This document shows positions 15,001-17,620 of a stretch of 36,212 nt of DNA, piece by piece. How positions within the stretch are numbered: the first letter of the stretch is position 1; the number at the start of each line of letters is the position of its first letter. This stretch comes from a virus (lineage: Duplodnaviria > Heunggongvirae > Uroviricota > Caudoviricetes): the IMG/VR virus record IMGVR_UViG_2713896799_000013; one strand, 5' to 3'. Made by a program: the position numbers.

Positions 15001-17620
15001 ACCCGGTACGCACCAGAAAATCATTGATATGGCCATGAATGGCGTTGGATGCCGGGCAACAGCCCGCATTATGGGCGTTGGCCTCAACACGATTTTACGT
15101 CACTTAAAAAACTCAGGCCGCAGTCGGTAACCTCGCGCATACAGCCGGGCAGTGACGTCATCGTCTGCGCGGAAATGGACGAACAGTGGGGCTATGTCGG
15201 GGCTAAATCGCGCCAGCGCTGGCTGTTTTACGCGTATGACAGGCTCCGGAAGACGGTTGTTGCGCACGTATTCGGTGAACGCACTATGGCGACGCTGGGG
15301 CGTCTTATGAGCCTGCTGTCACCCTTTGACGTGGTGATATGGATGACGGATGGCTGGCCGCTGTATGAATCCCGCCTGAAGGGAAAGCTGCACGTAATCA
15401 GCAAGCGATATACGCAGCGAATTGAGCGGCATAACCTGAATCTGAGGCAGCACCTGGCACGGCTGGGACGGAAGTCGCTGTCGTTCTCAAAATCGGTGGA
15501 GCTGCATGACAAAGTCATCGGGCATTATCTGAACATAAAACACTATCAATAAGTTGGAGTCATTACCGAATGCCCTGCAAATTCAGATAACGTATTTAAT
15601 GAATGCTTTAATAACCGTTGCATTCTGCAAATATGCCCCTACGGACTAAAACGACACAGGCCATAATAAGTTTACGCATGTCTGATAGAATCTGTAGAAC
15701 CTGTTTATATAAAAAGCCCCTCAGGAGAGGGGCATGCTTGCATGGTGCCGGGTGCCTCCCGATGAATTCAGTATCAGTACCCGAATCAGCATAATAAAGG
15801 AGCAGAACAGAAACATACATCACTCATATGCCCACCACCCGGGGGGATCCACCATGCAAATTTTTTCTAACAAAAGCTCCGTCAACCAGCAATGCCCAAT
15901 CAACTTAATTGTGATGGATTTAACATTTCACGTCTGTGTATTTTTTACACTCTTCAGCAAAGGCAACACCATTATCACCATCCCCGCCACCAGCACACCA
16001 TCTGCCAGTACCGACATCAGCCGTCCGGTGAAATCCACTGCCACTACCAGAAACAGCAGGATGGCAGCCAGCACAAGGCGCGCACTTTTCACAGGTACTG
16101 CTCCAGTGGTAGCTGCAGCGCCTGAGCAATTTTCTTGAGCTGTGCTTCTTCATCCGGACCAATACCATCCTGGTCAGCGATATCCAGACACAGGCACAGC
16201 ACATTAACTGCGTCATCAGTACCTGCAATATCAGCCAGCTGGCGGAGGGCTTCAGCATTGGCAGAACGCGGCGATGCTTCATAACGGGCGCGGATATTTG
16301 CACTCATTTGTGCAATCTCACCCGAGAACGGCGCAAAGGCAGGAAGTGCTGCAATGGTTTTCTCCAGTACCGCGATTTCTTTCGCGTCACAGGTGCCGTC
16401 AGCATATGCAATGGAATACGCACCCCAGACGGTCGCCTCCACTGCATCGCGATTCTCCATCTTCTTCACTTCGGTAATGGCCTTGCGTGTTTTCTTTTTG
16501 AAAATACCAAACATCGTGACTTTTCCTTTTAGTGGGTGAGCCTGCGCCCTGGGGTGACCAGCCCACAGAGAAAGTCACACTGACCATCCCGTAAGCTCAC
16601 CCCTGAAAGGCTCTGTGGTTTTTGATATGCGCCGGGCGTGGCGCGGATACAAAAAAGGCCACGCAAATGCGCAGCCTGGTGATTCTGAGATTTTCGAACG
16701 ATTCCTTTTTACGACTCCTGCCTTCTATCTTCGGCAGAGATGCTTTGCCAAATTCACATCATTCATCGACATTAAAATACTGTCTTTGATGAACTCGCAT
16801 ACCTCGTTAATTTTTGCATCGGTATCTACGTGCGAAAATGTTCTGTCCCCATAACCATTAACTGAAATCGTCAGGTTATCGCCATCAAGCAGCACAATCT
16901 TTACACCAACTTCCACACTTGCAGACTGGCGGGGATTGTCATCAACAACTGTGTATAAATTAAACGCAACTCCGTCCCTAAGGTCTACCTGCAAATCCTC
17001 CGGTCGGACACTGAAGCCATTGAGGCAAATATAGACGTAAGGATGTAACTCACCCTCAATGTCTCGCCATTGCAGTTCCGGCAACGCCAGTGAAGACTCA
17101 TAGGCATTGACCAGCCTTGTGGCTGTATCCCGCAACCGCTGAATGTATTCCTGCTTAGCTTTCAGTATTTCGGCCCGTTTTGCCCTGATATCAGCATAAG
17201 TGACCACTGTATCAATCCTCTTATGAACAAATAAACAAGCCATCATAATAACCGCCAGGGTATACATGAAAAAGGCCGCCGTAGCGAGCCATGAAAAAAC
17301 AGAATAAAAAAAACCGCCAGGTGTGGCGGTAAAGATGTATTCCCAGGTTTCAGGTTTTACTTAGTAGCAAATTGTTCTATAACTTACTCTAAGTGATGTT
17401 TACAACATCGGAATGGTGCATCACCGGTACCTGCCATAGGGCTCACTACGTAGCCCAACCAATAATGCACCATTCCGGTATTGTAAAAAATCAGCACTAA
17501 GGCTAACCTGGCCTCAAAACATAGCCCGAAAACTGAGAGTTCCTAAAAAAAACAATCTGTCCTCACGTAATAAAAATACGCCAGTGCTGCAATACGCCTC
17601 TATCAAATGTTGGAGCGGGT

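Follow-up and report, generated by a model that had tools for sequence, protein, structure and literature searches.

A P1-type tciA-tciB gene pair behind a conserved structured leader in the late region of a lambdoid Escherichia coli prophage

In the lambdoid Escherichia coli prophage represented by IMG/VR virus record IMGVR_UViG_2713896799_000013 (36,212 nucleotides (nt), hereafter the window, meaning this whole stretch of DNA), in which the late genes lie on the minus strand, three minus-strand open reading frames (ORFs) encoding 180, 141, and 54 amino acids (aa) stand between two tRNA genes and the lysis genes. A first-pass annotation had read them as one moron cluster comprising a membrane-anchored protein (here ORF180), a TerB-like protein, and a peptide with two transmembrane (TM) segments, and all three ORFs were found where it had placed them. 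Do they form one unit, and what would a TerB-like protein do beside so small a membrane peptide? Comparison across phages and genera demonstrated that the conserved unit is the two-gene pair tciA-tciB, a P1-type accessory module residing in a lambdoid prophage. The finding is thus real but ordinary in kind, as a known P1-type pair, an unrelated gene, and a known small RNA (sRNA) had been mistaken for one cluster. The pair itself has already been catalogued as tciA-tciB in phage P1, where its annotation presumably dates back about two decades, and is widely annotated in RefSeq, including O157:H7.

The tciA-tciB pair

The 141-aa product of the middle gene, tciA, matched the Pfam TerB domain (PF05099) in two stretches at 32.0 bits (cut-off 24.4; E 1.6e-7), and the PHROGs family phrog_632 ('tellurite resistance') over its full length (6e-65); a precomputed PF05099 match was also present in nearly all TciA homologs. 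The protein is 85.2% identical to phage P1 TciA over 142 residues, with 78% nucleotide identity between the tciA region and phage P1, and identity remains at 77–97% across many genera. An AlphaFold (AF2) model with a predicted local distance difference test score (pLDDT) of 87 and a predicted template modelling score (pTM) of 0.83 consisted of a six-helix domain preceded by a lysine-rich, basic, and disordered N-terminal tail (residues 1–20). The best Foldseek match of this model in the Protein Data Bank (PDB) was 2h5n, a TerB-superfamily structure, at probability 1.0 and E 0.03 with a TM-score of only 0.50–0.53, whereas a sequence search of PDB chains gave nothing significant, with chance-level matches to PNPase and histone H3. 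Two acidic motifs were recognized, AYADGTCDAKE (residues 36–46) and IADQDGIGPDEE (residues 112–123); among 33 homologs, G40, D111, D114, and G117 were invariant, and D39, D43, E46, and E122 nearly invariant. The TerB family is defined by a repeated acidic A-D-G-x(3-5)-E motif. These results showed that tciA encodes a stand-alone TerB-domain protein, the identity of which is secure, and the earlier TerB-like assignment was thus borne out both by sequence and by a confident, all-helical structural model.

The 54-aa product of tciB belongs to DUF3927 (PF13064; 59.4 bits, cut-off 25) and to phrog_1470 ('TciB-like'; 4e-22), and is 52% identical to phage P1 TciB. Its two hydrophobic segments, as judged by Kyte–Doolittle 19-residue windows above 2.2 at residues 1–8 and 25–28, are linked by a conserved DFT(S/G)R turn, and R5, F21, S23, S27, D31, and P44 are near-invariant in the family. 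DUF3927 is small, with 46 clusters at 50% identity among 1.8 billion representatives, and 80 distinct tciB alleles were all found to be open, spanning 46–54 codons. Since the GTG start codon overlaps the tciA stop codon by 4 nt (GTGA) and is preceded by GGAG 9 nt upstream, tciB is probably translationally coupled to tciA.

The linkage of the two genes proved to be very tight. In IMG/VR, tciB followed tciA with the same 4-nt overlap in 80 of the 80 loci encoding a close TciA relative. The same succession was seen in 13 of 15 usable loci of other genera, taken from one-genome-per-species contigs retrieved with a TerB alignment, with hosts including Citrobacter, Enterobacter, Rosenbergiella, Pantoea, Erwinia, Buttiauxella, and Scandinavium. 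A single ORF fusing TerB to DUF3927 (P0073) may be a sequencing frameshift and was given no weight. The smallest ORF is therefore, as had been supposed, a genuine two-TM peptide that belongs with the TerB gene. Meanwhile, ORF180 and the sRNA gene STnc100 were found near tciAB in about 13 and about 10 of the 80 loci, respectively.

The 1.8-kb region matched 892 of 5,426 complete E. coli genomes. Annotated RefSeq chromosomes, among them GB089, carry it at 99.9% identity, and the identical loci bear the names 'hypothetical protein', 'tellurite resistance TerB family protein', and 'DUF3927 family protein'. The O157:H7 locus runs tRNA-Ile, tRNA-Arg, leader, TerB, DUF3927, nanS-p esterase, and holin, with no ORF180. 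The tciA gene was intact in 109 of 111 copies of the window type. In O157-type loci, truncation was mostly due to an A6-to-A7 change in codons 7–9 within an A6/A7(/A8) homopolymer, where PGAP calls a TTG start in another frame (the tract lies at, for example, 4160–4200 in L004 and 2251–2290 in L088, two of the 35 O157-type loci); this shift could be either decay or slipped-strand on/off switching.

The leader RNA upstream of tciA

The TerB gene had also been credited with a structured leader present in a second copy, and this was confirmed. A conserved structured RNA of about 130 nt (134 nt in the window) immediately precedes tciA, and a diverged copy (type B; 51.6 bits, E ~1e-10) stands before an antirepressor-type ORF with a P22_AR_N domain (PF10547, 2e-45), both being located between the lysozyme gene and an Rz-like gene. 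The leader occurred in 1,296 of the 5,426 complete genomes of E. coli, the copy number having a median of two and a maximum of six, and a pattern scan of viral contigs yielded more than 120 further copies. Besides two TerB subfamilies, the genes that it precedes encode KilA-N, Rha, ANT/KilAC, P22_AR_N, T5orf172, and HNH_3 proteins. In O157:H7, the leader is 85% identical to that of the window, while the TerB protein is only 39% identical. The ATG always lay 43–47 nt from the conserved GGGC, and almost every copy was preceded by two hairpins, a GC-rich one of variable sequence with a T run and a small one of the form GCGC(C)-loop-(G)GCGC.

A covariance model (R1) built from TerB-type (type A) leaders only scored 158 bits at the tciA leader of the window and recovered the other leader types together with new variants, 107 hits in total. 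In the resulting alignment, which was fitted to the model and hence favors structure, 93.3% of cells were paired, compared with 34–47% when the partners were slid by 1–3 columns, and changes on both sides were seen in 19 of 31 pairs (7 of 9 in P2 and 9 of 11 in P3). The size of this effect and the recovery of leader types unseen by the model argue that the helices P2 and P3 are real. The length of the poly-G tract in the P2a arm varies from G4 to G12 (L124). The fold energy of the single sequence was not unusual (z = −1.8; 11 of 200 shuffles as good), so that the structural case is carried by the covariation.

In addition to P2 and P3, the P3-loop sequence CUCUGUG pairs with CACAGAG, immediately 5′ of the hairpin, to form helix P1. 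Coordinated variants of it were observed, namely CACAGAA/UUCUGUG, CAAAGA/UCUUUG, GAAAGU/ACUUUC, and GAGAG/CUCUC, and CAAAGA/UCUUUG was found by the model and not by the pattern scan. An alternative helix GARCC/GGYUC also fits the R/Y variation, and lineage correlation prevents its separation from helix P1. The nested minimum free energy (MFE) fold comprised, in 6 of 9 leader types, P2 and P3 plus a basal helix in which the invariant CCUUU pairs with the Shine–Dalgarno (SD) sequence AAAGG.

No Rfam 15 model matched the leader at gathering thresholds in the window, nor at E up to 10 in 15500–17900, where any hits were at chance level and fell outside the leader. Known prophage sRNAs were considered and set aside, as the Rfam models of AgvB, AsxR, Esr41, C4, and IsrK all miss the leader. 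PasA was likewise rejected because it lies on the other side of nanS-p, adjoining the holin gene. TerB or antirepressor contexts were not mentioned in Tree et al. (2014), and no matching lambdoid leader or pseudoknot was found described in the literature searched. Since phage P1 and 10 of the 15 cross-genus tciA loci are without it, the leader is an added layer of regulation and is not integral to what TciAB does.

Taken together, these features make it a tentative proposal, to which we assign somewhat under even odds, that the leader constitutes an undescribed class of cis-acting RNA regulator acting on the cargo genes of lambdoid prophages, a terminator-preceded translational switch that sequesters the SD sequence and gates TerB/TciA as well as antirepressor-type regulators (P22_AR_N, KilA-N, Rha, and ANT). 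CCUUU would pair with AAAGG at the base of the P2/P3 hairpin and lock translation, helix P1 would represent the alternative state, and the trigger might be a ligand, a protein, temperature, or a co-transcriptional signal. If so, TciAB would be part of a co-regulated 'late cargo' regulon, which could link prophage cross-induction to membrane physiology. The leader, a structured RNA that is well supported and unmatched in Rfam, stands before both TerB genes and antirepressor-type genes in many prophages of E. coli and is the most interesting part of the locus.

Expression and possible role of TciAB

The setting of the pair was then examined for its bearing on expression. In all 146 relations scored between leaders and marker genes, the two were co-oriented; Q and RusA were always upstream and terS always downstream, with holin, lysozyme, and nanS on either side. 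In phage P1, tciABC is flanked by the C1-operated promoter Pban and by ban, which share its strand. The late gene array of the window is co-directional and interrupted by several intrinsic terminators, with 13 terminator-like sites in 14000–19500 compared with 6.6 ± 2.3 in shuffles. Terminator T1, downstream of the tRNAs, has 7 pairs (5 GC) and a T-rich tail, and is kept in relatives without ORF180; in phages without ORF180, an intact T2 hairpin runs straight into the tciA leader. The stems at the T3 position differ between phages and yet stay complementary (GGCTGCGCA/TGCGTGGCC here, GGCTCGC/GCGGGCC in O157). The three genes had been described as bracketed by terminators of their own. The two hairpins in question, 17330–17313 and 15733–15716, do exist, but the latter is the 3′ end of STnc100 and T3 splits ORF180 from tciA.

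No sigma-70-like promoter was detected on the minus strand at 16680–16515 by a crude consensus scan, which cannot exclude weak promoters. A promoter inside the leader was also considered and rejected, the by-eye candidates being weak and unconserved between leader types. From the uniform co-orientation, the terminator-studded array, the lack of a promoter-like site between T3 and tciA, and the position in phage P1, we infer with moderate support that terminator-resistant transcription during the lytic cycle is the main source of tciAB expression and that the leader imposes a further control at translation. Expression in the lysogen in the manner of a classical moron is unsupported for tciAB, since the scan found no promoter-like site between the T3 hairpin (16677–16656) and tciA and the pair belongs to a co-directional late unit.

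In the best explanation overall, which we favor with somewhat more than even confidence, tciA-tciB is a membrane-associated late-gene module under leader control. RNA polymerase rendered terminator-resistant by Q would read through to tciAB during lytic growth, and once the leader permits synthesis of TciA, TciB would be translated by coupling and inserted in the inner membrane. TciA, as an amphitropic TerB domain with a basic tail, would dock on the membrane or on TciB, which would anchor or recruit it there. TerB has been described as membrane-associated or amphitropic, and its proposed task in Bunzi and Shango (10.1101/2022.05.11.491447), and likewise in Dionysus (10.1101/2025.09.30.679545), is 'membrane surveillance'. 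At a late stage of infection, the complex might then alter or monitor the state of the inner membrane, possibly buffering it against depolarizing insults (pore-forming colicins, superinfecting phage, or abortive-infection effectors) that would otherwise trigger premature lysis. This biochemical role at the membrane is a guess. The leader is shared with antirepressor-type genes (P22_AR_N, KilA-N, Rha, and ANT), which must stay off in the lysogen.

Several observations weigh against this explanation. In the type A leader of the window, the SD-sequestering fold lies 1–5 kcal/mol above a competing MFE fold, and CCUUU and AAAGG are invariant, so that covariation is uninformative on their pairing. 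The promoter scan was crude, giving 7 sites in 14000–19500 where 8.6 were expected, and STnc100 or weak promoters could alter the transcription picture. As the holin gene of this prophage is absent, any role of tciAB in lysis timing is moot here. Furthermore, 16 of 35 O157-type tciA copies were truncated when read from the ATG set by the leader, on which account some lineages may not need the pair or may be letting it decay. In phage P1, knock-down showed tciA, tciB, and tciC to be non-essential for plaque formation (PMC10695390), and P1-like elements vary in whether they carry the operon, which about half of the members of one P1 subgroup have lost (PMC9603915).

Alternatively, in line with the sensor-effector layout that the first-pass annotation had seen here, TciAB could be an anti-phage or abortive-infection pair, in which TciA senses a membrane or infection cue and TciB acts as a small pore-forming or depolarizing effector, to the protection of the lysogen population. 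Small TM effectors are common in abortive-infection systems, the module occupies a variable cargo slot of prophages and P1-like phage-plasmids, and the double lock of a terminator and an SD-sequestering leader would suit a toxic product. As the first-pass annotation had pointed out, TerB domains do occur in defense loci, and validated systems that contain them are Shango and Bunzi (10.1101/2022.05.11.491447) and Dionysus (10.1101/2025.09.30.679545), the last with TM and pore-forming partners. However, none of the three proteins matched PADLOC-DB v2.0.0 at E up to 1 (a library that predates Dionysus), and beside tciAB there are none of the partner genes that define Shango, Bunzi, and Dionysus; by these comparisons, TciAB would not be a member of any of the three systems. 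Moreover, the consensus scan detected no promoter for expression in the lysogen, the pair resides in lytic transcription units both here and in phage P1, and truncated tciA is frequent in O157-type loci. We therefore regard a defense function as unlikely.

A further possibility is that the pair confers resistance on the lysogen to tellurite and/or pore-forming colicins in the manner of the ter operon of plasmids and islands, which is the meaning of the historical name 'Tci'. TciA is indeed homologous to TerB, databases name it 'tellurite/colicin resistance protein', and the suggestion has been repeated in reviews. Those names derive from homology only, however, and Ter phenotypes depend also on terC, terD, and terE, whereas none of terZ, A, C, D, E, and F was present in the window or beside the pair in relatives. 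Nor does anything point to expression in the lysogen, and such a determinant seems improbable.

Equally improbable in our estimation is that tciAB is neutral cargo, hitch-hiking through lambdoid and P1-like recombination and decaying in many hosts. The dispensability in phage P1, the losses from many P1-like elements, and the O157-type truncations noted above would all fit such cargo, and the prophage of the window is itself defective, owing to the IS1 deletion of its holin gene and a methyltransferase pseudogene. Against this stand the high identity of TciA across many genera, the near-complete integrity of the window-type copies, the open reading frames of all 80 tciB alleles, and the retention of the pair in both lambdoid and P1 backgrounds.

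The lysis cassette downstream was examined in the light of an intact sister prophage in E. coli GB089. A complete IS1 replaces 1,295 bp in the window, corresponding to a 642-nt gene, a class II holin gene, and most of iraM, of which the last 99 nt remain at 15568–15666; on this comparison, the prophage should be lysis-defective. The position of the three ORFs between tRNAs and lysis genes was correct as to the tRNAs, while the holin of the lysis genes has given way to IS1. In the sister prophage, the class II holin gene lies about 770 bp downstream of tciB, beyond STnc100 and iraM, and the true holin is thus a gene other than tciB. That TciB is a displaced holin or antiholin remnant, as the first-pass annotation had allowed in view of a small peptide with two TM segments upstream of the lysis cassette, is very hard to credit, as it matched DUF3927/TciB and no holin family in Pfam or PHROGs and is coupled to tciA even in phage P1, where tciB is far from the lysis genes.

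Neighboring features and relation to known systems

The gene order in the direction of transcription is Q, a CPBP-protease gene, a truncated DNA methyltransferase gene, tRNA-Thr and tRNA-Gly, the three ORFs, the STnc100 sRNA gene, the iraM remnant, IS1, lysozyme, and the remaining lysis and packaging genes. The coordinates of the features are summarized in Table 1.

Table 1. Coordinates of the tciAB locus and neighboring features in the window.
Feature	Position	Strand	Remarks
Q	20039–20413	minus	
tRNA-Thr and tRNA-Gly	17611–17764	minus	upstream of the three ORFs
Terminator T1	17305–17330 (hairpin 17330–17313)	minus	ACCGCC-ACAC-CTGGCGGT then T8; downstream of tRNAs
Terminator-like hairpin T2	17269–17290 (hairpin 17290–17274)	minus	degenerate; GGCTCGC-TACG-GCGGCC then T5
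ORF180, longest form	16725–17267	minus	180 aa
ORF180, probable real coding sequence	16725–17207	minus	GTG start, 160 aa, no predicted TM segment
Terminator T3	16650–16677 (hairpin 16677–16656)	minus	9-bp stem then T6; between ORF180 and leader
tciA leader	16515–16648	minus	conserved structured RNA
Leader P0 hairpin	16644–16640 with 16633–16629	minus	
Leader P1a	16617–16611	minus	CACAGAG
Leader anti-SD	16610–16606	minus	CCUUU
Leader P2	16602–16594 with 16542–16534	minus	
Leader P3	16590–16580 with 16561–16551	minus	
Leader P1b	16570–16564	minus	CUCUGUG, in P3 loop
Leader SD	~16529–16525	minus	AAAGG
tciA ATG	16514	minus	
tciA	16089–16514	minus	141-aa TerB-domain protein
tciB	15928–16092	minus	54 aa, GTG start, DUF3927 two-TM hairpin
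STnc100 sRNA gene	15711–15886	minus	Rfam RF02076; ends in terminator 15733–15716
IS1	14800–15567	plus	complete, 768 bp
Lysozyme	13839–14372	minus	
Second leader copy	13564–13701	minus	diverged (type B)
P22_AR_N antirepressor-type ORF	13117–13566	minus	behind second leader copy

ORF180 matched no Pfam domain and only phrog_5091 (unknown function), the latter from residue 21 onward, and only 20 clusters of homologs were found, all from Enterobacterales. The membrane anchor claimed for its 180-aa form did not withstand comparison. The conserved core begins at V21, with many homologs called from MVTY or MITY, and the N-terminal extension is variable among homologs, carrying C11R or being non-hydrophobic (MAHFSKTGRI...). 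Its hydrophobic stretch covers 13 residues with a maximum 19-residue hydropathy of 1.59, and residues 1–18 were modeled at pLDDT below 50. The ATG at 17267 abuts the T run of T2, whereas a strong SD sequence, AAGAGGA (17222–17216), stands 8 nt before the GTG at 17207, and the homolog in locus L028 shares sequence with ORF180 only from this GTG onward. On the strength of the conserved core, the L028 homolog, the SD sequence, the weak hydropathy, and the abutting ATG, the real start is most likely the GTG at 17207, which would give a soluble protein of 160 aa.

The ORF180 model (pLDDT 83) showed a helix, an antiparallel sheet, and a helix, and structure comparison gave no informative relative or recognizable fold match. 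In the window, a 1-nt deletion (AAA to AA) at 16725–16760 near the 3′ end results in a shorter, altered C-terminus, ...NLAKHLCRR instead of the usual ...KFGKASLPKIEGWSRKKESFENL, a variant shared with a few other E. coli genomes. A promoter-like site at 17272–17245 and terminator T3 fit the moron pattern at the consensus level only. Because T3 separates ORF180 from tciA and ORF180 is present in only about 13 of 80 loci, it is, as far as these comparisons indicate, a separate, optional, and independent insertion outside the tciAB unit, and the notion of a three-gene moron cluster had to be abandoned.

STnc100 was identified at its full length (93.7 bits against a gathering threshold of 47; model positions 1–206). 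Its 3′ end is the first terminator after tciB, a position at which most relatives carry other sequence, and the RNA could be either an independent transcript or a processed 3′ untranslated region of the tciAB mRNA. The STnc100 prophage sRNA family is reported to be related to PasD, and TerB to be among the conserved neighbors of PasA/PasC (10.64898/2026.05.13.724894).

Other features of the region were also recorded. A CPBP-family intramembrane protease gene of low GC content (19066–19890, minus strand) directly follows Q, and is furnished with the best promoter-like site of the region (TTGCCA-17-GATAAT, 19944–19916) and a terminator-like hairpin at about 18928–18900; placed between Q and the tRNAs, it has the appearance of a moron in its own right. 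An imperfect inverted repeat at 17399–17487, between tRNA-Gly and T1, has 30-nt arms that are 83% complementary and a 29-nt spacer. It matched microRNA models at chance level only and may be an unannotated structured RNA ending at T1. Elsewhere in the window, Rfam identified a full-length sok antitoxin RNA (111 bits; 23277–23448, minus strand), which is adjoined by a hok-type gene in a relative, and the DicF sRNA (77 bits; 30738–30789, plus strand).

The present analysis thus separates a conserved unit, consisting of leader, tciA, and tciB, from two neighbors, namely an optional gene unrelated to it and an sRNA that was already known. As a minimal and widespread combination of TerB with a tiny membrane partner, TciAB could be a tractable model for what TerB does at membranes, a question that concerns the ter operon as well as Shango, Bunzi, and Dionysus.

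Among known systems, the closest is tciA-tciB of phage P1, with the same gene order and a tciB start that likewise overlaps the tciA stop. In both, tRNA genes and a DNA methyltransferase gene lie upstream of the pair; in the window, the latter is a pseudogene fragment (17940–18428, minus strand), and the order methyltransferase, tRNAs, tciA-tciB mirrors dmt, tRNA-Asn/Thr, tciABC of phage P1, which suggests from gene order a larger block common to lambdoid and P1-like phages. The two differ in that the window pair lies in the Q-to-lysis late region of a lambdoid prophage and has a structured leader and an upstream terminator, whereas that of phage P1 lies in the C1-controlled ban region without either. 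In addition, tciC was absent from the window as judged by tblastn with phage P1 TciC at E up to 10, and STnc100 follows tciB instead.

With TerB of the ter operon, TciA shares the PF05099 domain, an all-helical fold, the paired acidic ADG...E motifs, and a proposed membrane association. It differs in standing alone with a 54-aa DUF3927 peptide as its partner, in place of the multi-pass TerC. Shango, Bunzi, and Dionysus resemble TciAB in combining a TerB-like protein with membrane-embedded partners. The pair nevertheless lacks the helicase and ATPase of Shango and the MAEBL/TM protein and four-TM pore-forming toxin of Dionysus, and unlike all three it is situated in a phage late region, not in a defense island.

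As a cargo slot, the locus resembles that of O157:H7 prophages, where the order is tRNAs, cargo (TerB-DUF3927), sRNA, (nanS-p), and holin; sRNAs of the PasD/STnc100 type and TerB have been reported as neighbors in this region. This position, downstream of Q and the tRNAs, is presumably the slot of stx (stx1/stx2) in Stx phages. The cargo differs in kind, as stx encodes a secreted toxin and tciAB an intracellular pair that is predicted to be membrane-associated. Lastly, the leader may be likened to SD-sequestering leaders and hairpin-loop/flank (HLout) pseudoknot riboregulators such as translational riboswitches and the T4 gene 32 leader, with which it has in common a fixed distance to the start codon, covarying helices with loop-to-flank pairing, and a predicted anti-SD/SD pairing. 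It is distinguished from them by the genes placed under its putative control, which are phage regulators and TerB rather than metabolic genes.

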